DNA from: Escherichia phage EcoDS1
Reading direction: 5' to 3' (one strand)
DNA length: 39,252 bases
Sequence record: NC_011042.1
A program made the translations under genes and the position numbers. Positions within the stretch are counted from its first letter, which is position 1; every line of letters begins with the position of its first letter. Shown piece by piece: positions 793 to 38,404 of this stretch. Below the pieces are notes generated by a model, which saw only the letters and a program-made list of their open reading frames with translations, had not been told where the DNA came from and ran no database searches.

Positions 793-989
793 ATACGGCA
801 AGCAAGATTAGTGAGTCCCAACACTGAAACGGGATAGCACGGCGACGACAGCCAATGCGAATGCTCTTTAACAATCTGGATAAACTCTTAATGTGCGCCG
901 ATAGCGACTAACTACAGGGTCTTTGAGTCTACATCTGAAGGCCCTGACTGATAGTCACTAACACATACTTAACTTTGAGAGGAAACACT

Positions 990-1322
990 ATGGAACGTAA
1001 CGCTAACGCATACTATGACCTGCTGGCTGCAACTGTTGAAGCATTTAACGAGCGCATTCAGTACGACAAGATAGCTGAAGGTGATGACTACCACGATGCG
1101 CTGCATGAAGTTGTAGACGGTCAGGTTCCGCACTATTACCACGAGATCTTCACGGTGATGGCTGCTGATGGTATTGACCATGAGTTCGAAGACTCTGGGC
1201 TGATGCCTGATACCAAGGACGTAACGCGTATACTACAAGCTCGCATCTATGAGGCACTGTATAACGATGTGTCTAATAGCTCGGATGTGGTCTGGTTCGA
1301 ACCTGAGGAGGACTGCGAGTGA
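990..1322 (+). CDS. ocr: Ocr (gp0.3) DNA-mimic anti-restriction protein
   Basis: 110-aa acidic protein; VPHYYHEIFTVMAADGIDHEFEDSGLMPDTKDV..RILQARIYE aligns closely with T7 Ocr. ATG at 990 follows a GAGAGG RBS; the ORF-track start at 975 is an in-frame TTG. Confidence 0.9.
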   Translation: MERNANAYYDLLAATVEAFNERIQYDKIAEGDDYHDALHEVVDGQVPHYYHEIFTVMAADGIDHEFEDSGLMPDTKDVTRILQARIYEALYNDVSNSSDVVWFEPEEDCE

Positions 1323-8781: not shown

Positions 8782-9480
8782 ATGGCTAAAGAGCAACTGA
8801 AGACTTTCACCACTCCGGTAGCTGGTATCGTTGAGCCCTACGCATGGCTGAACAAAGCAGACACCAAGTTTAACGAGCGTGGTGAGCATAAGGTTAACCT
8901 GACTTTCAGTCTGGATGACCCGAAAGTCCGTAAGATGATTGATGTCTTACAGAAGATTCACGACGATGCGTATGCGAAAGCACTCACAGACCACGAGAAG
9001 AACCCGCCTCAGGTTCAGCGTGGCAAGAAGCCTATTGAACCGCGTGAAGGCGACATGCCGTGGATTGAGAATGGTGATGGTACTGTTACCCTTAAGTTTA
9101 AATGCTTTGCGTCTTACCTTAAAGACGGCAAGTCCGAGCCTATCGTATTACGGTTCTACGACACCGATGCTAAACTCATCCGTGACGTACCGAATATTGG
9201 CGCTGGCTCCAAACTTAAGGTCAAGTTTAAAGTCCTGCCGTTTAAGTGGAACGCTGCGACTGGTGCAAGCGTTAAGCTACAGCTTGAGTCCTGCCTTCTG
9301 GTAGAACTGAAGGAGTGGAAAGGTGATGGTGCTGGTGGTGATGGTGGCTGGGGTGATGATGAAGACATCGGTACTGGCTACAAAGCGTCAACTGATGGTG
9401 ACTTCGGGTCTGACGACTTCGGTGACGATGGTTCCGAAGGTGGTGACGACTCCAGCTCTGGTGGCGATTACGATTTCTAA
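8782..9480 (+). CDS. Single-stranded DNA-binding protein (gp2.5)
   Basis: 232 aa; GASVKLQLES..LVEL and an acidic C-terminal tail ending in DF, as in T7 gp2.5. Confidence 0.95.
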   Translation: MAKEQLKTFTTPVAGIVEPYAWLNKADTKFNERGEHKVNLTFSLDDPKVRKMIDVLQKIHDDAYAKALTDHEKNPPQVQRGKKPIEPREGDMPWIENGDGTVTLKFKCFASYLKDGKSEPIVLRFYDTDAKLIRDVPNIGAGSKLKVKFKVLPFKWNAATGASVKLQLESCLLVELKEWKGDGAGGDGGWGDDEDIGTGYKASTDGDFGSDDFGDDGSEGGDDSSSGGDYDF

Positions 9481-9935
9481 TGGCCCAATGGTCTGCAAAA
9501 CGGGGGCACTCTGTGGGTGCCTACCGCTCTGGACTTGAAGCCAAGAACCAGCAGTGGCTGGAACAGAACGGCGTCAAAGCGGAGTACGAAAGCCATTATA
9601 TCAACTATGTGATTCCGGCTTCCGACCACAAGTATACACCAGACTTTATCCTTCCTAACGGTATCATCGTGGAGACAAAAGGTATCTTCGATAGTGATGA
9701 CCGTAAGAAGCACCTTCTGGTACGAGAACAGTACCCAGAGTTAGACATCCGGTTCGTGTTCTCAAGTTCCCGCTCCAAGCTATACAAAGGGTCTCCGACC
9801 ACGTATGGCGCATGGTGCGAAAAGAACGGCTATAAGTATGCCGATAAGTTCATCCCGGTTGAGTGGCTCCGAGAGGCGACTGTACGTCTGCCTTCAGGTA
9901 TACTCATTCCCAAGAAGAAAGGAGTTAAGAAATGA
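9480..9935 (+). CDS. Endonuclease I (gp3), Holliday-junction resolvase
   Basis: 151 aa; YVIPASDHKYTPDF, VETKG, DDRKKHLLVREQYPELDIRFVFSSSRSKLYKGSPTTYG match T7 gp3. Confidence 0.95.
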   Translation: MAQWSAKRGHSVGAYRSGLEAKNQQWLEQNGVKAEYESHYINYVIPASDHKYTPDFILPNGIIVETKGIFDSDDRKKHLLVREQYPELDIRFVFSSSRSKLYKGSPTTYGAWCEKNGYKYADKFIPVEWLREATVRLPSGILIPKKKGVKK

Positions 9936-10423
9936 GCAAGAAGTTTAAACTGTCAGTAGCTACGTGTGGCTGGCCTCGTGGGACTATCGTTACCAAGTGT
10001 GAGAAGGATCCTAGCCCCCGTCCGGGCATGACCCTAGTTGAGTGCCATACTCCAGGCATCTACAAACACGGGTCTAACGGCCACAATACTCAGCCTGATG
10101 GTATGTGGGGAGCATGGGTCTCTGCTTATGACCTTGAGGAAATCAAGCCGGAAGAGAAACTCACTGGTGTACAGACCACTCAAGTCCTACCAGCTTCGAG
10201 CGTACCTCCCGTGACAGTGAAACGCGAAGTCCTGACAATCGATAAGATTGGCGTTGGTCAGACGTTCATCGTCCACGGTAAGCCTGACGAAGTTTACGTT
10301 AAGATTAGCAACTCTCACGTCTTCAACCATAAGCGTCTCCAGATGCATACCACGGACGCACAACGCTTCACCCAGCACCTGAATCTGGTGGTCGTAGAAT
10401 TGGTGGTGTACAATGGTAAGTAA
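9932..10423 (+). CDS. Hypothetical protein (163 aa) between endonuclease I and lysozyme
   Basis: ORF track; start and stop both overlap neighbouring genes; no T7 counterpart at this position; several Cys in the N-terminal 40 aa. Confidence 0.65.
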   Translation: MSKKFKLSVATCGWPRGTIVTKCEKDPSPRPGMTLVECHTPGIYKHGSNGHNTQPDGMWGAWVSAYDLEEIKPEEKLTGVQTTQVLPASSVPPVTVKREVLTIDKIGVGQTFIVHGKPDEVYVKISNSHVFNHKRLQMHTTDAQRFTQHLNLVVVELVVYNGK

Positions 10424-16991: not shown

Positions 16992-17014
16992 ACTAAACTA
17001 TCACTATAGGGACT
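16992..17014 (+). promoter_or_regulatory. Phage-RNAP promoter (phi6.5-like)
   Basis: CACTAAACTATCACTATAGGGACT; +1 G at 17009. Confidence 0.8.
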
Positions 17015-22181: not shown

Positions 22182-22748
22182 ATGGCTCAATACATTCCAC
22201 TGAATGCTAACGATGACTTAGACGCCATCAACGATATGTTAGCAGCTATCGGTGAACCAGCAGTCCTACAGCTTGACGAGGGGAACGCTGACGTCTCGAA
22301 CGCTCAACGTATCCTACATCGTGTCAATCGTCAGGTCCAAGCTAAAGGCTGGAACTTTAACATCAACGAAGCTGCTGTCCTGACACCTGATATCCAAGAC
22401 AATAGGATTCGATTCTTGCCATCATACCTTCGTGTAATGACTGCTGGGGCCACCAGCTACTACAGCAACATGGGTGGATACCTGTACGACCTGTCCACTC
22501 AGTCAACCACTTTCACCGACCCTATCACGGTAGAGCTTGTGGAGATGAAGCCATTCTCCGAGATGCCTGTGGTCTTCAGGGACTACATCGTCACTAAAGC
22601 TAGCCGTGAGTTCAACGCTAAGTTCTTCGGTAGCCCAGAGTCTGAACTGTACCTTCGTGAGCAGGAAGCAGAACTCTATCAGCAGGTCATGGAATACGAG
22701 ATGGATACTGGTCGCTACAACATGATGTCCGACATCGGGAGGGACTAA
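22182..22748 (+). CDS. Tail tubular protein A (gp11)
   Basis: 188 aa; IGEP, GWNFNI, YIVTKASREFN, FFGSPE, MEYEMD match T7 gp11. Confidence 0.92.
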   Translation: MAQYIPLNANDDLDAINDMLAAIGEPAVLQLDEGNADVSNAQRILHRVNRQVQAKGWNFNINEAAVLTPDIQDNRIRFLPSYLRVMTAGATSYYSNMGGYLYDLSTQSTTFTDPITVELVEMKPFSEMPVVFRDYIVTKASREFNAKFFGSPESELYLREQEAELYQQVMEYEMDTGRYNMMSDIGRD

Positions 22749-22975
22749 TGGCTAGTCACAACCTGAAGATTCACCGCCAGCACTTTGGTCCTGTACAACT
22801 AGGTCTAAAGACAGCAGAGCTGAGACTTAACGACCGGGACTTTAAGGTTGGCGACTGGCTTATCCTGAACGAGTGGGACAACGGATATACTGGACAACAG
22901 GTAGCACGTAAGGTTGTCCACATTGCTGACGTTGGTGACATCGCTGAGGGATACGTCCTAATGAGTATGATTTAA
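22748..22975 (+). CDS. DUF3850 / ASCH-like small protein (75 aa)
   Basis: H.LKIH..HFGPV..GLKTAELRLNDRDFKVGDWLILNEWD..YTGQQV fits the DUF3850 pattern as I recall it (ASCH/PUA-like fold); TAATG coupling to gp11; T7 has no gene here. Confidence 0.65.
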   Translation: MASHNLKIHRQHFGPVQLGLKTAELRLNDRDFKVGDWLILNEWDNGYTGQQVARKVVHIADVGDIAEGYVLMSMI

Positions 22976-22984
22976 GGAGGTCCT

Positions 22985-25342
22985 ATGCCACTAATTACTC
23001 AATCAATCAAGAACCTTAAAGGCGGTATTAGCCAGCAGCCAGACATACTGAGGTTCTCAGACCAAGGCGAGGAGCAAGTTAACTGCTGGTCATCGGAGAG
23101 TGATGGCCTCCAGAAGCGTCCACCTACAGTCTTCAAGCGACGTCTTAACATCGACGTTGGGAGCAACCCTAAGTTCCACCTGATTAACCGTGATGAGCAG
23201 GAGCAGTATTACATCGTGTTCAACGGGTCAAACATTCAGGTAGTTGACTTGAGTGGTAATCAATACTCAGTTTCCGGTGAGGTAGACTACGTTAAGTCGT
23301 CCAACCCGCGAGATGACATCCGTGTTGTTACCGTTGCAGATTATACGTTCATCGTGAACCGTAAGGTTGTCGTTAAAGGGGGAAGCGAGAAGTCACACTC
23401 TGGTTACAATCGTAAAGCTCGTGCTTTAATTAACCTGCGTGGTGGACAGTATGGTCGCACCCTTAAGGTAGGAATCAATGGAGGCGTTAAGGTTTCGCAT
23501 AAGTTGCCAGCAGGTAATGATGCCGAGAATGACCCTCCTAAGGTTGATGCTCAGGCTATCGGTGCAGCTCTGAGAGACCTTCTTGTTGCTGCTTACCCTA
23601 CCTTCACGTTCGACCTTGGGTCTGGCTTCCTGTTAATCACTGCCCCTTCAGGGACTGACATTAACTCAGTGGAGACGGAGGATGGCTACGCTAACCAGCT
23701 AATCAGCCCAGTACTCGACACAGTGCAAACAATCTCTAAGTTGCCTCTTGCAGCTCCAAATGGGTACATCATTAAGATTCAAGGTGAGACCAACAGTAGC
23801 GCCGATGAATATTACGTGATGTATGACTCCAACACTAAGACGTGGAAGGAGACAGTAGAGCCGGGAGTGGTCACTGGGTTCGATAACACCACAATGCCAC
23901 ATGCTCTGGTGAGACAATCTGACGGCTCCTTTGAGTTCAAGACTCTGGACTGGTCTAAGCGTGGTTCTGGTAATGATGACACAAACCCTATGCCTAGCTT
24001 CGTGGATGCCACGATTAACGATGTGTTCTTCTACAGGAACAGGCTAGGGTTCTTGTCAGGCGAGAACGTAATCATGAGCCGTTCAGCAAGCTACTTTGCG
24101 TTCTTCCCTAAGAGTGCGGCTACATTGAGTGATGACGATCCTATTGACGTAGCCGTAAGTCACCCTAGAATCTCAATCCTTAAGTATGCCGTTCCGTTTA
24201 GCGAGCAGCTACTACTTTGGTCAGATGAGGTGCAGTTCGTTATGACAAGCTCTGGGGTCCTCACTGCGAAGTCTATCCAGCTTGATGTAGGCTCAGAGTT
24301 TTCCTTAGGCGATAATGCCAGACCGTTCGCTGTAGGACGCTCAGTCTTCTTCTCAGCGCCTCGTGGGTCATTCACCAGCATTAAGCGATACTTCGCTGTA
24401 GCAGATGTGTCTGACGTGAAGGATGCCGATGATACCACTGGCCACGTACTGTCCTATATCCCTAACGGGGTGTTTGACATTCAAGGTACAGGGACTGAGA
24501 ACTACATCTGCGTCAACTCTACAGGTGCATACAACCGAATCTACATCTACAAGTTCTTGTTTAAGGATGGCGTACAGCTTCAAGCCTCTTGGTCGCACTG
24601 GGAGTTCCCTAAAGCTGATAAGATTCTGGCGTCTGCGTCGATTGGCTCTACCATGTTCATTGTTCGTCAGCACCAAGGCGGCGTGGACCTTGAGCACCTT
24701 AAGTTCATCAAGGAGGCAACTGACTTTCCGTTAGAGCCATATAGACTCCACGTTGACTCCAAGGTGTCTATGGTAATACCAATTGGCTCATACAACGCTG
24801 ACACCTATAAGACTACGGTTGACATTGGTTCTGCTTATGGAGGAAACGCTCCGTCTCCCGGTCGGTACTATCTGATCGACAGTCAGGGTGCCTACGTGGA
24901 CCTTGGGGAATTTACCGACATCTCAACTGTGGCTATACTCAATGGCGATTGGTCAGGACGTACAGTGTTCATCGGACGGTCTTATCTGATGTCCTACAAG
25001 TTCTCACGGTTCCTGATTAAGATTGAAGACGAGAGTGGCACTCAGTCTGAAGACACTGGACGCCTACAACTTCGCCGGGCTTGGGTCAACTACAAGGACA
25101 CTGGCGCTCTTAGACTCATTGTCAGAAACGGTGAGCGGGAGTTCGTGAACACCTTTAATGGGTACACCCTTGGTCAGCAAACCATCGGGACTACCAACAT
25201 TGGGGATGGTCAGTATCGCTTCGCTATGAATGGTAACGCATTAACCACGAGCCTAACCTTAGAGTCAGACTATCCTACCCCAGTGTCCATCGTTGGGTGT
25301 GGCTGGGAGGCGTCATACGCTAAGAAAGCTCGTTCCGTCTAA
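22985..25342 (+). CDS. Tail tubular protein B (gp12)
   Basis: 785 aa; SQSIKNLKGGISQQPDILR, VADYTFIVNR, DPIDVAVSHPRISILKYAVPFSEQLLLWSDE, RLQLRRAWVNYKDTG, IVGCGWE match T7 gp12. Confidence 0.96.
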   Translation: MPLITQSIKNLKGGISQQPDILRFSDQGEEQVNCWSSESDGLQKRPPTVFKRRLNIDVGSNPKFHLINRDEQEQYYIVFNGSNIQVVDLSGNQYSVSGEVDYVKSSNPRDDIRVVTVADYTFIVNRKVVVKGGSEKSHSGYNRKARALINLRGGQYGRTLKVGINGGVKVSHKLPAGNDAENDPPKVDAQAIGAALRDLLVAAYPTFTFDLGSGFLLITAPSGTDINSVETEDGYANQLISPVLDTVQTISKLPLAAPNGYIIKIQGETNSSADEYYVMYDSNTKTWKETVEPGVVTGFDNTTMPHALVRQSDGSFEFKTLDWSKRGSGNDDTNPMPSFVDATINDVFFYRNRLGFLSGENVIMSRSASYFAFFPKSAATLSDDDPIDVAVSHPRISILKYAVPFSEQLLLWSDEVQFVMTSSGVLTAKSIQLDVGSEFSLGDNARPFAVGRSVFFSAPRGSFTSIKRYFAVADVSDVKDADDTTGHVLSYIPNGVFDIQGTGTENYICVNSTGAYNRIYIYKFLFKDGVQLQASWSHWEFPKADKILASASIGSTMFIVRQHQGGVDLEHLKFIKEATDFPLEPYRLHVDSKVSMVIPIGSYNADTYKTTVDIGSAYGGNAPSPGRYYLIDSQGAYVDLGEFTDISTVAILNGDWSGRTVFIGRSYLMSYKFSRFLIKIEDESGTQSEDTGRLQLRRAWVNYKDTGALRLIVRNGEREFVNTFNGYTLGQQTIGTTNIGDGQYRFAMNGNALTTSLTLESDYPTPVSIVGCGWEASYAKKARSV

Positions 25343-25349
25343 CTTATTG

Positions 25350-25399
25350 AAGGGCCTATAGATTTACCTTAACTATCACTATAGGGACTATAGGCCCTT
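25350..25399. repeat. 12-bp perfect inverted repeat enclosing the phi13-like promoter
   Basis: AAGGGCCTATAG (25350..25361) and CTATAGGCCCTT (25388..25399) are exact reverse complements. Confidence 0.6.
25367..25389 (+). promoter_or_regulatory. Phage-RNAP promoter (phi13-like)
   Basis: CCTTAACTATCACTATAGGGACT; +1 G at 25384. Confidence 0.8.
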
Positions 25400-25418
25400 A
25401 AGGTTATAAGGAGACTTT

Positions 25419-25874
25419 ATGTATATTCGCAAGGCTACAGATGTAGACGTTTGGTACGCTGCTGCACAACTTACAGATGACGACTTAGAGGAGTGTAAAG
25501 CCAACTACGGGACCACTGAAGGTCTCACTGAAAGGCTGCAAGCACACCTAACGTCTTCATCTGTGGTTTTGACTAACGCTACTGGGGATATTTACGCCTA
25601 TGGCGGCAACCAAGGTGACAACGTTTGGTTCCTGACAACCAGAATTACCGAGCGTCTCCCACCTAAAGGTAAGCGAGAGTTCCGTGAGAGAATCATGGAG
25701 TATCGTGACCAGATGCTGGAGGACTATCCGGTACTATGGAACTACGTCTGGGAAGGCAATGCGTCCCACATCCGGTTTCTCAAGTCAATAGGCGCTAAGT
25801 TCCACGACGATAAGTGGACCAGAAGTCCAGTGACTGGAGAAGTATTCATTCTATTCACAATCACCAAGGAGTAA
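25419..25874 (+). CDS. Internal virion protein A (gp13)
   Basis: 151 aa; positional; N-terminal MYI as in T7 gp13. Confidence 0.7.
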   Translation: MYIRKATDVDVWYAAAQLTDDDLEECKANYGTTEGLTERLQAHLTSSSVVLTNATGDIYAYGGNQGDNVWFLTTRITERLPPKGKREFRERIMEYRDQMLEDYPVLWNYVWEGNASHIRFLKSIGAKFHDDKWTRSPVTGEVFILFTITKE

Positions 25875-25876
25875 AG

Positions 25877-26278
25877 ATGACCAAGGTTTGTTTAACTTGT
25901 GGTCTGGAGAAACCAATCACTGAGTTTCACAAACAGGCCACCAAGAAAGACCCGAACAGGCGCAAGCCTCATTGCAGAAGCTGTTGGTCCAAGATACGGA
26001 AGGATAGAACCCCAGAGCACAACAGGAGGTATAACCTGAAGAAAGGATACGGAATAACACCTGAGGAGTATGATAAAATGCTTCGTGAGCAAGGTGGGAC
26101 ATGTGCTATTTGTCATGGTACAGAGTCTGTAGGAAGACTAGCGGTAGACCATTGCCATTCAACTGGAAAGGTTAGAGGGCTGCTATGTACCAACTGCAAT
26201 CAAGCTATAGGCAAGCTGAAGGATGACGTCCAGTTGCTTAGAAACGCTATCAACTATCTGGAGGTGAACCATGTGTGA
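25877..26278 (+). CDS. Endonuclease VII-type HNH nuclease (133 aa)
   Basis: CAICHG..(x)..AVDHCHSTGKVRGLLCTNCNQAIG is the endonuclease VII / HNH zinc-finger motif; a second CxxC pair lies at the N-terminus; absent from T7 at this position; the ORF-track start at 25814 is an upstream in-frame extension. Confidence 0.8.
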   Translation: MTKVCLTCGLEKPITEFHKQATKKDPNRRKPHCRSCWSKIRKDRTPEHNRRYNLKKGYGITPEEYDKMLREQGGTCAICHGTESVGRLAVDHCHSTGKVRGLLCTNCNQAIGKLKDDVQLLRNAINYLEVNHV

Positions 26279-26858
26279 ACCAGTATCCATCGGTTTAGGA
26301 ATCATGGCTGTAGCAGGGGCCACTATGTCAGCATCCCAACAGGCCAAAGCTGAGGGTGCTGCTATCGATGCTCAGAACCGGCAGGCTCAGGAGATGGTTA
26401 AGCAGATGAACTACTCTGACGCCAACCTGAAGATGCAGGAGCGAGACCTGAAGGAGCAGCAGATGGCCGAACTGACAGAGACCACGTTAAACGGTATCCG
26501 CAATCAGGGTATGGTCCGAGCTGCGGTAGCTGAGTCCGGTCTGGAAGGTAACTCTATGGACAGGATTGAACGTCAGGTCAAAGGAGATACAGTCAAGGAG
26601 AGAGCAGGGATTACCGAAAGTTACAACCGCGACTATGCGGCTATCTTCGGGAACCGTATCGCCAACATTGAGAACACCAAGTCTGCTATCCGTGGTCAAG
26701 GTAAAATCATCAAGACCAGCCCACTGGCTCATGCACTTAATGTTACTAACGCCGGGATGCAAGGGTACGCTGCTGGTAAGTCAATCTCTGGGGCATCAAG
26801 CTCTGATGGGGCTGCACCAATTAGTGCGGCTAAAGGCACACCTACAGGTCATAGCTAA
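26271..26858 (+). CDS. Internal virion protein B (gp14)
   Basis: 195 aa; MC N-terminus, ESGLEGNSMDRI, NRDYAAIF, AAKGT.TG match T7 gp14. Confidence 0.9.
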   Translation: MCEPVSIGLGIMAVAGATMSASQQAKAEGAAIDAQNRQAQEMVKQMNYSDANLKMQERDLKEQQMAELTETTLNGIRNQGMVRAAVAESGLEGNSMDRIERQVKGDTVKERAGITESYNRDYAAIFGNRIANIENTKSAIRGQGKIIKTSPLAHALNVTNAGMQGYAAGKSISGASSSDGAAPISAAKGTPTGHS

Positions 26859-26869
26859 GAGGAGGACTA

Positions 26870-29152
26870 ATGGCTAGTAATATTGAATCAGCTCTTGCTA
26901 ATCGGACTATGGGTCGGGGCAGAGCGCCGGGTAAAACTATCGCTGTCAACTATCAAGCAGCCAACGTACAAGCTCCTACTGGTGACTCCGGTCTGGCTCG
27001 TGCGTTAACCAACTTCGTTGAGTCTGGGACTGGATTGTACAAGCAGTTCAAAGACGAGGAGAAGACCAGAGCTGACGAGCGGTCTAACGAGATTATCCGT
27101 AAGCTGACACCTCAGCAGAGACGTGAGGCTATCCAGAACGGCACACTGCTGTATCAGGACGACCCTTACGCTATGGAAGCACTTCGAGTCAAGACGGGCC
27201 GTAACGCTGCCTTTGCGGTGGATGACGAGATTAACGTTAAGATTCAGAACGGTGAGTTCCGTACACGTCAGGACATGGAAGAGTATCGCCACCAGCGACT
27301 TCAGGACGCCGCTAAGTCCTATGCTGAAGAGGCGGGTATTAATCCTACAGACGAGTTCTTCCAGCGCGGGTTCAACGATAACATCACAGACCGCAACATC
27401 GCTATCTATGGGTCTTTCAATAAGTATTTCAGCAAGCAGTCTGAAGAGACAGCAATGTTGAACACTCGTATTGAGATGAACTCATTCCTGAACGATGGCG
27501 ACCTGATGCGTTCACCCGAGTCTGGCAAGACCTTCATGGCCTACCTTCGTGATGGACTGACTACTGCTGCTATCCCTTCGGACCAGCGAGCACGGGAGGT
27601 CATTACCCAGACGGTCCGTGACGCAATCCAGAAGTCCGGCGGCTCAAACTTCCTACAGCAAGTACGAGGCGAGCGAATCACCCTTAACGGTGTGGATGCT
27701 ACAGTCGAAGAGATTGTAGGACCTGATGTCTTCAACGCTGCTATTGTTGAGGCACAAGGAACTGAGTACAAGCTGGTGGCTAAGTATCAAGAGGAATTAG
27801 CGTTAGGCGTTCAGTCTGCTATTCTTCAGGACGACCCAACCATCGGTCTTGCCCAGATTCAGAAACTCAAGGAGCAGAACAACCTGCTTCAGCCGGGTGA
27901 AGAACTCACTCCTCAGCGTCAGATGCTTATTAATGCCGAAGCGAGCTTACTGGAAGCGGTCAAGCGTAAGTCTGCTGAACAGGCGAAGGAGAACACTAAG
28001 TTAATTCAGACTCAGAACAAGCAACTGGTCATTGACCAAGTGTATCAGCGACGTCTGGCTGGGGACAACGTGTCCACCAACTATGAGGACCTTCCAGTCT
28101 CAGATGCTACAGGCGAGTTCAAGCGTTCTGACATGAACAACTATGCATCTACCAAGCTACAGCAGATTGACCAGATGGACATCCCTGAGGCTGCTAAAGA
28201 CGCTCAGAAGGTGGCATTGTTAAGAGCTGACACTAACAACGGTCCGTTCCGTAATGCCTTCCAGACTCTAACTCAGGACGCTGCTGGCGAGTGGCAAGCT
28301 GCGGTCATCCGTGGACAGTACGACCCAGACAAGATGCAACGCTTCGAGTCTCTTCGTCGTGCCTACACTCAGGACCCTTCAAGTTTTGCTGCTCTGTATC
28401 CTGACCAAGCTCAGTTGTTCTCTACGTTCGACCAGATGGACAAGATGGGTCTGGACCCTCAGACGATGATTGAAGCTGATAAGCAAGCTGCAAGTCAAAG
28501 CCGTGAGATGCGCATGGAGTCAGACAAGGCGTGGCAGGAGTTGAAGAACGACTCCAAGAACACCCAGTTGTCTCGCCTCCCAACGTCTCTGGACTCAAGT
28601 GCTCGTAAGGTCTGGGACTCATGGTACTATCGTACAGGTAACGCTGACGCTGCAACGCAGCAGACTCAACGCTGGCTGAATGATAACACCGTAACGTTCC
28701 AGTCTGAAGGTTCTGACGGTAAGTCAATCGGCATGGTGTCGAAGCACCAGCTTATGGTCGGGGATAACCCAGAGTCGTGGCATGTGGGTCGAGACATTAT
28801 AGACACAGCTCGTCAGCAGCTCATTAAGGCCAACCCTTGGGTAGTGAACTCTCAGTTGTCCGTTGTTGAACAGAACGGCTCTATCTTCCTCCAAGACGCT
28901 ACGGGGACTATTCGTATTCGATACGATAAAGAACTTGTAGGTAAACTCTACCGCGAACAACAGCAGAAGGCACAAGATGCCGCATATGCTCAGGCAGAAC
29001 GTGACGCTAACAAGCGATCGCGTATCGTCGGGACTAAAGCTGCTGGTGACAAACGTCGAGCTGACCGAGAGGCCAACATCGAGAAGCGCGGTGGGATGTA
29101 CAATGACGTCTCACTGGAGGGTATCGCAAATGCACTAATCGGTAAGGAGTAA
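26870..29152 (+). CDS. Internal virion protein C (gp15)
   Basis: 760 aa; size and position match T7 gp15 (747 aa). Confidence 0.9.
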   Translation: MASNIESALANRTMGRGRAPGKTIAVNYQAANVQAPTGDSGLARALTNFVESGTGLYKQFKDEEKTRADERSNEIIRKLTPQQRREAIQNGTLLYQDDPYAMEALRVKTGRNAAFAVDDEINVKIQNGEFRTRQDMEEYRHQRLQDAAKSYAEEAGINPTDEFFQRGFNDNITDRNIAIYGSFNKYFSKQSEETAMLNTRIEMNSFLNDGDLMRSPESGKTFMAYLRDGLTTAAIPSDQRAREVITQTVRDAIQKSGGSNFLQQVRGERITLNGVDATVEEIVGPDVFNAAIVEAQGTEYKLVAKYQEELALGVQSAILQDDPTIGLAQIQKLKEQNNLLQPGEELTPQRQMLINAEASLLEAVKRKSAEQAKENTKLIQTQNKQLVIDQVYQRRLAGDNVSTNYEDLPVSDATGEFKRSDMNNYASTKLQQIDQMDIPEAAKDAQKVALLRADTNNGPFRNAFQTLTQDAAGEWQAAVIRGQYDPDKMQRFESLRRAYTQDPSSFAALYPDQAQLFSTFDQMDKMGLDPQTMIEADKQAASQSREMRMESDKAWQELKNDSKNTQLSRLPTSLDSSARKVWDSWYYRTGNADAATQQTQRWLNDNTVTFQSEGSDGKSIGMVSKHQLMVGDNPESWHVGRDIIDTARQQLIKANPWVVNSQLSVVEQNGSIFLQDATGTIRIRYDKELVGKLYREQQQKAQDAAYAQAERDANKRSRIVGTKAAGDKRRADREANIEKRGGMYNDVSLEGIANALIGKE

Positions 29153-36039: not shown

Positions 36040-36486
36040 ATGCTCGAATTTTTAAAGAGAGCGGCTCCGTGGTTACTCGCAGCAGTGATGTTTGCTGGGG
36101 GCTACCACACCGCTAACAATAAGTGGGAGGCTAAGATCAATGCAGAATACACCTCGAATCTTAAGGCATCGGAGGATACAAGGCTTGCTGTCCAAGCTGA
36201 AGTCAACAAAGTGTCCAAACGGTTTCAGGACGAAATGTCATCGCTGGAAGGTAGCACTGATAGGATTATTGCTGACCTTCAGTCTGACAATAAGCGGCTG
36301 CGCATCCGAGTCAAAACTACGAGTGGAACCACGCAAAGTGACGGTCGATGCGTCATTGATGGTTACGCCGAACTTGACGAACGAGATGCTAAACGTCTTA
36401 TCGCCATCGGAGTGAAAGGAGACAAATGGATTAAGGCACTTCAGGACACTGTGAGAGCCTTACAGCAAGATAAGGAGACCCCATGA
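36040..36486 (+). CDS. i-spanin (Rz-like, gp18.5)
   Basis: 148 aa; N-terminal TM helix (WLLAAVMFAGGY) followed by charged coiled-coil-like periplasmic region; position as T7 gene 18.5. Confidence 0.85.
   Translation: MLEFLKRAAPWLLAAVMFAGGYHTANNKWEAKINAEYTSNLKASEDTRLAVQAEVNKVSKRFQDEMSSLEGSTDRIIADLQSDNKRLRIRVKTTSGTTQSDGRCVIDGYAELDERDAKRLIAIGVKGDKWIKALQDTVRALQQDKETP
36140..36415 (+). CDS. o-spanin (Rz1-like, gp18.7) embedded in the +1 frame of gp18.5
   Basis: Embedded ORF with hydrophobic stretch VALIGLLLTFSLTISGC and lipobox-like ISGC (Cys codon 36299..36301); start uncertain (ATG at 36140 after GGGAGG, but the pre-Cys region would be unusually long). Confidence 0.45.
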   Translation: MQNTPRILRHRRIQGLLSKLKSTKCPNGFRTKCHRWKVALIGLLLTFSLTISGCASESKLRVEPRKVTVDASLMVTPNLTNEMLNVLSPSE

Positions 36487-36644
36487 TGTGGAAGACTACC
36501 TACATGTTCTTAGATGGCTCTGAGATGCTTGGGTGGCGCTATACAAGCATTGAGTCTGCCTACATGGTGGCTACTGAGGCCCTGACTTCCGGTAAGAACC
36601 AGACGATGTTTGGGTTTAAGGTAACTAAGGAGGTGAAGCATTGA
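36483..36644 (+). CDS. Small ORF (53 aa) between spanin and terminase genes
   Basis: ATG overlaps the gp18.5 stop and its TGA overlaps the gene 19 start; below the ORF-track cutoff; no T7 equivalent known to me. Confidence 0.3.
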
Positions 36645-38404
36645 GTAAAGACTTAGTGGCGCGTCATGCGCTAATGACTGCACGTATGAAGGCAGACTTC
36701 GTGTTCTTCCTGTTCGTCCTGTGGAAAGCTCTGTCACTCCCGGTCCCGACTCGCTGTCAGATTGACATGGCGAAGAAACTATCGGCTGGGGACAACAGGC
36801 GCTTCATCCTACAGGCGTTCCGTGGTATAGGGAAGTCCTTCATTACGTGTGCCTTCGTTGTCTGGAAGTTATGGAACAACCCAGACTTGAAGTTCATGAT
36901 TGTGTCGGCCTCAAAGGAACGAGCCGATGCTAACTCCATCTTCATCAAGAGAATCATCGACCTCATGCCTCAGCTTCAGGAACTCAAACCTAAGCAGGGG
37001 CAGCGAGATGCGGTTATCAGCTTCGACGTTGGACCGGCCAAGCCAGACCACTCACCTTCGGTTAAGTCCGTTGGTATCACTGGTCAGTTGACTGGTAGTC
37101 GTGCTGACATCCTGATTGCCGATGACGTGGAGGTTCCTAACAACTCAGCGACTCAGGCTGCACGAGACCGTCTGTCAGAGCTTGTGAAAGAGTTCGACGC
37201 TATCCTGAAGCCGGGAGGTACAATCATCTATCTGGGTACTCCTCAGAACGAGATGACCTTGTATCGTGAGCTGGAAGGCCGTGGATACACCACTACTATC
37301 TGGCCTGCTCGTTATCCACGTGATAAGAAGGACTGGCAGTCTTACGGCGACCGTCTGGCACCGATGCTTCAGGCAGAGCTGGAAGAGGACCCTGAGTCCT
37401 TCTACTGGCGTCCGACTGATGAAGTACGCTTCGATGATACGGACCTGAAGGAACGCGAGTTGTCATATGGTAAAGCTGGCTTCGCTCTACAGTTCATGCT
37501 TAACCCGAACCTGAGTGATGCAGAGAAGTACCCTCTGAAGCTCCGTGACCTTATCGTAGCAGACTTGGACCCATCGTCCAGCCCAATGGTCTACCAATGG
37601 TTGCCTAACCCTCAGAACAAGCGTGAGGACGTTCCTAACGTTGGACTCATGGGTGACTCATACCACACATATCAGACTGTAGGTTCTGCCTTCAGTTCGT
37701 ACACCCAGAAGATTCTGGTCATTGACCCCAGTGGTCGTGGTAAGGATGAAACTGGCTATGCGGTACTATACCAGCTCAACGGCTACATCTTCGCTATGGA
37801 AGTTGGTGGTATGCGTGGTGGTTATGAAGACTCTACTCTTGAAGCTCTGGCTAAGATTGGTCGTAAGTGGAAGGTCAACGAATACGTCATTGAGGGTAAC
37901 TTCGGTGATGGTATGTACCTTGAGCTATTCAAGCCTGTAGCGGCCCGTATTCATCCTGCTGCTGTAACTGAAGTGAAGAGTAAGGGTCAGAAGGAACTCC
38001 GCATCTGTGACGTTCTGGAGCCTATCATGGGGTCTCACCGACTTATCGTTAACGCTGCTGCTATCGTCCAAGATTACCAGTCGGCCTCTGATAAGGATGG
38101 TGTTCGTAACCCTATCTACTCTCTCTTCTACCAGATGACACGTATCTCTCGTGAACGTGGAGCCTTGGCACACGATGACCGACTTGATGCTCTGGCTATC
38201 GGTGTACAGTTCTTCGTTGAGTCTATGGCTAAGGATGCCAACAAAGGAGAACGTGAAGTCACTGAGGAGTGGCTGGAGGAACAGATGGAGAACCCACGGA
38301 AAGGCTTCGAGTCCATCCACACTGAGTTCTGGGACAATGGGGTACGGGTAACTCACGATACGGACGACGAGCTAGGGCTAGGGTCCTACGTTACGTTCCA
38401 CTAG
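36641..38404 (+). CDS. Terminase large subunit (gp19)
   Basis: 587 aa; [158 protein letters not shown] match T7 gp19; apparent TTG start preceded by AAGGAGGT. Confidence 0.97.

Follow-up and report, generated by a model that had tools for sequence, protein, structure and literature searches.

The window analysed here is the whole 39,252-nt stretch of Escherichia phage EcoDS1 (NC_011042.1). The genome is T7-like with all assigned genes on the plus strand, and megablast places it in the genus Kayfunavirus (K1F-like), with Escherichia virus TH20 as the best match over 24800-27400 (96.9%). Downstream of the nozzle gene gp12 (PF25675), a 133-aa ORF is located between gp13 and gp14; gp14 is followed by a 760-aa ORF at the position where relatives have gp15 annotated. 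The ORF list and the Pfam matches of the flanks bear out the first-pass annotation, which had placed a small free-standing nuclease gene at 25877-26278 between these two virion genes. Its statement that T7 has no gene here is likewise correct: in the T7 record, there is no gene between the end of gene 13 (27723) and the start of gene 14 (27728), and the phi13 promoter lies upstream. K1F also has a gp13/gp14 junction without an endonuclease gene. The features of the EcoDS1 locus, and two distant genes that bear on its interpretation, are:

25375-25388, plus strand: phage RNA polymerase promoter upstream of gp13, the equivalent of T7 phi13 (consensus ATCACTATAGGGAC)
25419-25874, plus strand: gp13, internal virion/scaffold protein, 'A' allele, left flank of the insertion site (PF11090, E=2e-35)
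25868-25879, plus strand: left junction, AAGGAG-TAA-AG-ATG (37-locus junction comparison)
25877-26278, plus strand: endonuclease ORF, ATG at 25877, TGA at 26276-26278, 133 aa (ORF list)
26260-26278, plus strand: right junction, with a replacement SD for gp14, GGAGGTGAACC, from the 3' end of the cassette
26271-26858, plus strand: gp14, internal virion protein B, right flank, which keeps an ATG start (PF24072, E=5e-45)
26271-26305, plus strand: first ~35 nt of gp14, with the 5' haplotype TGTGTGAACCAGTATCCATCGGTyTAGG (alignment of 13 close relatives and the junction table)
9480-9935, plus strand: gp3 endonuclease I, the canonical T7-type Holliday-junction resolvase (PF05367, E=4e-81)
36641-38404: terminase large subunit

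Three minus-strand ORFs overlapping the endonuclease gene (25892-26116, 25917-26102 and 26183-26347) were taken as spurious because every assigned gene is on the plus strand. Among the small ORFs tested in the EcoDS1 genome, there were no further nuclease or HNH genes. Elsewhere in the window, a 163-aa ORF (9932-10423, plus strand), flanked by the endonuclease I gene gp3 and the amidase/lysozyme gene gp3.5, matches no Pfam family and hits PHROGs of unknown function alone (phrog_16385, E=1e-96), and the early region contains an Ocr-like anti-restriction gene (975-1322, plus strand; phrog_2568, E=1e-53) that has a TTG start in the ORF list.

The boundaries of the inserted gene are exact at both ends. 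On the left, the SD AAGGAG (25868-25873) lies within the last codons of gp13, 5' of the endonuclease ATG. In the 37-locus junction comparison, this gp13-end SD is the SD of gp14 in empty alleles, where the gp14 ATG follows it as AAGGAGGACGT-ATG or AAAGGAGGCTGAT-ATG, while in carriers it is used by the endonuclease ORF, which is therefore probably translated from it. On the right, the endonuclease stop TGA overlaps the gp14 start (ATGTGTGA). Salmonella phage ST66, an empty allele, reads gp13-TGA-T-ATG-gp14 (junction sequence ...AAAGGAGGCTGATATGTGCGAACCAGTG...), and when it is aligned with EcoDS1 the cassette falls exactly between the two genes; in 101136BS1, the endonuclease ATG is literally at the former gp14 ATG position. 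The TAAAG-ATGACC junction is seen with either gp13 allele type and thus travels with the cassette. Perfect matches to the promoter consensus are found at 17000 and 25375 alone (with 11 near-matches against 3.2 expected), and no match was found in or beside the endonuclease gene. Since the nearest promoter is that at 25375 and there is none at the gene itself, the endonuclease is presumably co-transcribed with the late genes gp13-gp14. The promoter region, 25300-25400, is 97-100% conserved.

The encoded protein matches Pfam Endonuclease_7 (PF02945) with E=2.2e-28 (98.4 bits against a cut-off of 23.6) over 78 of the 82 profile positions, and PHROG 2633, 'endonuclease VII', with E=4e-45; both matches are far beyond chance. 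The Pfam result is the HMM search that the first-pass annotation had proposed as a check on its 'endonuclease VII/HNH' assignment. The endonuclease VII part of that name holds; the HNH part needs a qualification, in that Fang et al. (2018, PMC6083498) distinguish proteins with the EndoVII motif, as the DHHRN family, from canonical HNH proteins, both belonging to one beta-beta-alpha-metal superfamily. In their scheme, the DHHRN motif defines the EndoVII-motif homing endonuclease family, and the motif is complete in the EcoDS1 protein. The signature read earlier from the sequence, CAICHG..DHCH..GLLCTNCN, is present in the translation as C76-A-I-C79-H-G, D91-H-C-H94 and G-L-L-C104-T-N-C107-N108. 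Three sets of functional residues are predicted:

C5, C8, C33, C36: predicted N-terminal Cys4 zinc ribbon, common to Hpy99I, with none in T4 EndoVII
C76, C79, C104, C107: predicted core zinc site, CxxC...CxxC around the active site, equivalent to T4 EndoVII C23, C26, C58, C61
D91, H92, H94, R100, N108: predicted catalytic/active site, equivalent to T4 EndoVII D40, H41, H43, R54, N62

N108 was assigned via the N62D mutant chain of T4 EndoVII (1e7l) in the PDB sequence alignment. We aligned the endonuclease with 60 full-length metagenome homologs of 38-95% identity. Across these 61 sequences, C5, C8, C33, C76, C79, D91, H92, H94, R100, C107 and N108 are invariant, and C36 and C104 are kept in at least 90%. 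The first-pass annotation had tied its reading to the survival of the catalytic His/Cys residues in a careful alignment, and they do survive.

Structure comparison points to the same family and indicates which of its members the protein is closest to. A phmmer search of PDB sequences aligned query residues 3-129 to Hpy99I 76-196 (E=9e-8) and 62-118 to T4 endonuclease VII 9-72 (E=1e-4). An AlphaFold2 model built from the homolog alignment (mean pLDDT 92.9) contains strands at 89-92 and 99-103 and then a helix at 105-113, the beta-beta-alpha-metal fold. Foldseek with this model against the PDB returned Hpy99I (3fc3) and T4 EndoVII (1en7) as the sole significant matches. Hpy99I is the best solved-structure match by both sequence and fold, including the CxxC...CxxC ribbon and the beta-beta-alpha-metal core; the match spans the full length (E=4e-6, 137 columns) with an overall rmsd of 12.4 Å, so that the domain orientation differs or is uncertain. 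Hpy99I differs in having an extra N-terminal domain (1-75) and a methyltransferase partner in a bacterial restriction-modification system, while the EcoDS1 gene has no methylase and a phage setting. T4 endonuclease VII (gp49; PDB 1EN7, 2QNC) shares the core and its zinc site and superposes over the core alone (rmsd 2.4-3.6 Å over 86-89 columns, 2.4 Å over 89 columns at best), but it is a 157-aa junction resolvase without the N-terminal zinc ribbon, and its C-terminal half is missing in the EcoDS1 protein. The domain layout of an N-terminal Cys4 ribbon followed by a nuclease core resembles the sequence-specific Hpy99I more closely than T4 endonuclease VII.

The gene is optional at one precise site among close relatives. 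We searched phage records by megablast with 24800-27400 and examined the best 40: six carry the same gene (type I), four have in its place a diverged gene of equal length (type II), one has a remnant, and 29 are empty, with the empty alleles ~392 bp shorter. An independent IMG/VR sample anchored on gp14 was similar, with 21 of 24 loci empty, one type-II remnant and one third lineage (type III). When the endonuclease gene alone was used as a blastn query, the full gene was present in only 6 of 50,697 phage records. Flanks of the closest empties are 94-97% identical to those of carriers, and no near-isogenic (>99%) empty/occupied pair was found. As the first-pass annotation had pointed out, mobility would be hard to maintain if all relatives carried the gene with no insert-free allele; the empty loci in both samples, K1F and T7 are such alleles.

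Several lineages have occupied this junction. Protein identity among types I, II and III is ~40-43%, and all three match PF02945. The EcoDS1 and TH20 type-I proteins are 100% identical, and the five remaining type-I copies of the phage collection have 82-97% DNA identity to EcoDS1. An EndoVII gene also occupies the gp13/gp14 junction of Berlinvirus PP74 and of Przondovirus P510, and a Ralstonia phage has one between its scaffold and capsid genes. Two type-II copies are decayed: in KM02 the catalytic core is deleted, and in locus L018 (IMGVR_UViG_2974604219_000001, ZG49-like; 1476-1994) the N-terminal half is deleted. At L018, one deletion apparently took the 3' third of gp13 (108 aa align) along with the N-terminal half of the endonuclease, which suggests that a truncated gp13 is tolerated there. 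In Klebsiella phage P510 (L038, MT966872; 1090-1878), the EndoVII-type domain is in frame with gp13 within a 262-aa ORF annotated 'internal (core) protein', which could be a true gp13-nuclease fusion or could reflect an internal start missed by the annotators.

The lineages also differ at the start of gp14. This start is ATG in all empty alleles except L036 (GTG), and also in EcoDS1 (26271-26273) and TH20. Of the seven type-I carriers, the remaining five (L001, L006-L009) have GTG, and the position reads ATT in type II and III carriers (L002, L003, L010, L018, L032), in which the annotated start is a downstream Met at codon 12 or 19. Carriage of the cassette may alter the initiation or the N-terminus of gp14.

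The history of the insert is decoupled from that of its flanks. Between type I and type II carriers, gp12, gp13 and gp14 are 90-98% identical, whereas the insert is only 51-56% identical in DNA. Conversely, in five of the six other type-I carriers, type-I DNA is 93-100% identical to that of EcoDS1 across both gp13 backgrounds, with a sharp identity breakpoint at the left junction by sliding identity, and all four combinations of gp13 A or B with or without the insert exist. The gp13 alleles themselves are 62-72% identical in DNA by sliding identity. Compared between EcoDS1 (25419-25874) and L001, L007-L009 and L013-L035, they are ~65% identical in both DNA and protein inside gp12 and gp14 flanks of ~95% identity, a case of a virion-protein module exchanged with sharp boundaries. 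Together with the independent lineages and degenerate copies, the decoupling is what a mobile gene would produce, but the gp13 mosaicism makes it non-specific for nuclease-driven transfer: because gp13 is similarly mosaic, general phage recombination could give the discordance without nuclease-driven homing. The flank discordance is proof that recombination has taken place at the junction, but not that a homing nuclease drove it. A dN/dS of 0.06-0.20 across the seven type-I copies indicates purifying selection, and dS is ~1 between the EcoDS1 and VIPECLMC06 copies. A gene useful to the phage could show selection of this strength as well.

We also looked for traces of a target site at the junction. 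The gp14 5' haplotype is common to six of the seven type-I carriers and is unlike most empty alleles; it is present in the empties L013 and L023 and absent in the carrier VIPECLMC06. These first ~35 nt of gp14 are a candidate co-conversion tract and/or may form part of a target region. No polymorphism or haplotype cleanly separates carriers from empties in the junction comparison (37 loci). Codons 1-45 of gp14 show dense synonymous changes among the 13 close relatives, with a cluster visible at codons 1-30. This silent-site cluster was rejected as a target-site footprint: in a sample of 36 sequences, 11 of the 145 sliding blocks score above the first 45 codons (rank 12), and comparable numbers of synonymous changes are found in other 15-codon blocks. 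The junction alignment that the first-pass annotation had proposed thus delivered insert-free relatives and the exact insert boundaries, but a homing site is not definable from it.

Taken together, the endonuclease is probably a free-standing homing endonuclease gene of the EndoVII-motif (DHHRN) family, carried as a ~0.4-kb cassette in the late virion operon. The first-pass annotation had proposed a homing endonuclease and mobile selfish element, and this proposal gains support from the exact boundaries, the three lineages, the two remnants, the two gp13 backgrounds and the presence of a separate gp3. We infer the mechanism from the family, and nuclease activity, sequence specificity, the location of a target and a homing event are all parts of that inference. 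The cassette, having no promoter of its own, would take over the SD that serves gp14 in empty genomes; its 3' end would bring a new SD for gp14, and therefore the operon would still work. In a mixed infection with a related cassette-free phage, the protein would recognise a particular sequence located at, or close to, either the empty junction or the 5' end of gp14, with both its N-terminal Cys4 zinc ribbon and its nuclease domain taking part in binding. The empty genome would then be cut by the beta-beta-alpha-metal active site (D91, H92, H94, R100, N108), and repair from the cassette-bearing genome would copy the gene and a short flanking tract into the cut genome. The literature searched contains no cleavage or homing experiment on the EcoDS1 endonuclease or any close relative, and no study of the gp13/gp14 junction as a homing site.

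A different role for the same mobile-looking gene would be that of an accessory nuclease, kept because it benefits the phage by cutting competing co-infecting phage or host DNA and spread by ordinary recombination. The strong purifying selection fits such a role, and the type-I lineage is old, with the VIPECLMC06 copy having diverged along with its genome to dS ~1. In addition, gp13 is a module swapped at this very locus without a nuclease, and the authors describing Hafnia phage Ca speculate that such nucleases attack the host (PMC8861465). However, most close relatives, including the type phage K1F, lack the gene, so any benefit is dispensable; deletion remnants exist; and three diverged lineages at one intergenic point form a pattern of site-specific invasion. 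We consider this role unlikely as the explanation of the locus. In known phage homing endonucleases, such as those of the T-even seg and mob genes, homing does not preclude competitor exclusion.

The best Pfam name, 'Recombination endonuclease VII', suggests instead a structure-specific enzyme that, as T4 endonuclease VII does, cleaves junctions or mismatches, and that would back up gp3 during recombination or DNA packaging. The core does superpose on T4 EndoVII over ~87 columns, and late expression, as judged from the promoter position, would coincide with concatemer processing. Yet the match covers only query 62-118 and residues 9-72 of the 157 aa of the T4 enzyme, whose C-terminal half is absent and replaced by the N-terminal Cys4 ribbon shared with Hpy99I. 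With gp3, the phage already has a T7-type resolvase, which makes a second one unnecessary, and the endonuclease is missing in most relatives, which makes it neither the sole nor a conserved resolvase. In addition, the podovirus members found alongside endonuclease I are assigned by Fang et al. (PMC6083498) not to the resolvase clade but to a clade of putative homing/restriction endonucleases, and these authors regard them as probably not resolvases. A T4-like role is therefore highly improbable. We give still less credence to an ancestral resident of the gp13-gp14 interval that diverged in place and was repeatedly lost without being mobile. EndoVII genes do occur at this junction in three genera, but divergence in place cannot give the contrast between flanks of 90-98% identity and type I and II endonucleases of 51-56% DNA and ~43% protein identity, and type I sits beside both gp13 allele types. 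A terminase-associated HNH protein of the HK97 gp74 type was rejected: the gene lies ~10 kb upstream of the terminase large subunit, between gp13 and gp14, and is optional.

The gene is an ordinary member of a known family and is already annotated, as gp13.5 in EcoDS1 or as 'endonuclease VII' in several Kayfunavirus records. The ORF described here and EcoDS1 gp13.5 (ACF15821 / YP_002003777) are the same gene at the same junction with no substantive difference, and the 'endonuclease VII' genes of Kayfunavirus yong1/Ca, vB_EcoP-101136BS1 and vB_VIPECLMC06 are this same gene at this same junction. In Hafnia phage Ca/yong1, the 133-aa ORF40, 'Endonuclease VII', is reported to be 95% identical to EcoDS1 gp13.5 (PMC8861465). 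EcoDS1 gp13.5 (ACF15821) is also in the EndoVII-motif homolog table of Fang et al. (PMC6083498), with motif position 'C' (C-terminal part). The founding DHHRN homing endonuclease is F-CphI of cyanophage S-PM2, for which homing activity has been shown experimentally (PMC6083498). By motif and description, F-CphI is similar in being a free-standing phage gene with a C-terminal EndoVII motif, with D, H, H, R, N and both CxxC pairs. In contrast, F-CphI targets psbA beside a group I intron site and its cleavage has been shown, whereas the EcoDS1 gene lies between virion genes and encodes a predicted nuclease. Hafnia phage Ca, a close relative, is reported to carry two further optional nuclease genes: a 143-aa HNH gene between the lysis gene and the terminase large subunit, within a 397-bp fragment that is deleted within the population, and a 146-aa endonuclease gene upstream of gp12 (PMC8861465). 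Both of these sites look empty in EcoDS1, at 36486-36641 (gap of 154 bp) and 22748-22985 (gap of 236 bp).

The finding has little importance beyond annotation. The proper label for gp13.5 is putative DHHRN/EndoVII-type homing endonuclease, rather than 'recombination endonuclease VII' or resolvase. For phage engineering and therapy, the gene is dispensable; where related Kayfunavirus phages co-infect, it could skew the inheritance of markers. The empty, occupied and decayed alleles collected here offer substrates for biochemical work that would be the first on a free-standing DHHRN enzyme in a T7-like phage. More broadly, it is possible, and we suggest it only tentatively, that the Studiervirinae gp13/gp14 junction is a landing site for which several unrelated-looking EndoVII-type lineages compete, each seizing the gp14 RBS and bringing a replacement. 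Were this so, re-tuned gp14 translation (ATG versus GTG versus ATT/downstream Met) would be a side effect. Intron-encoded homing enzymes are known for insertions that destroy their own target. If the recognition sequence is the conserved SD-ATG-gp14 junction, the EcoDS1 gene would be a compact free-standing DHHRN case of the same kind, in which insertion destroys the enzyme's own target.
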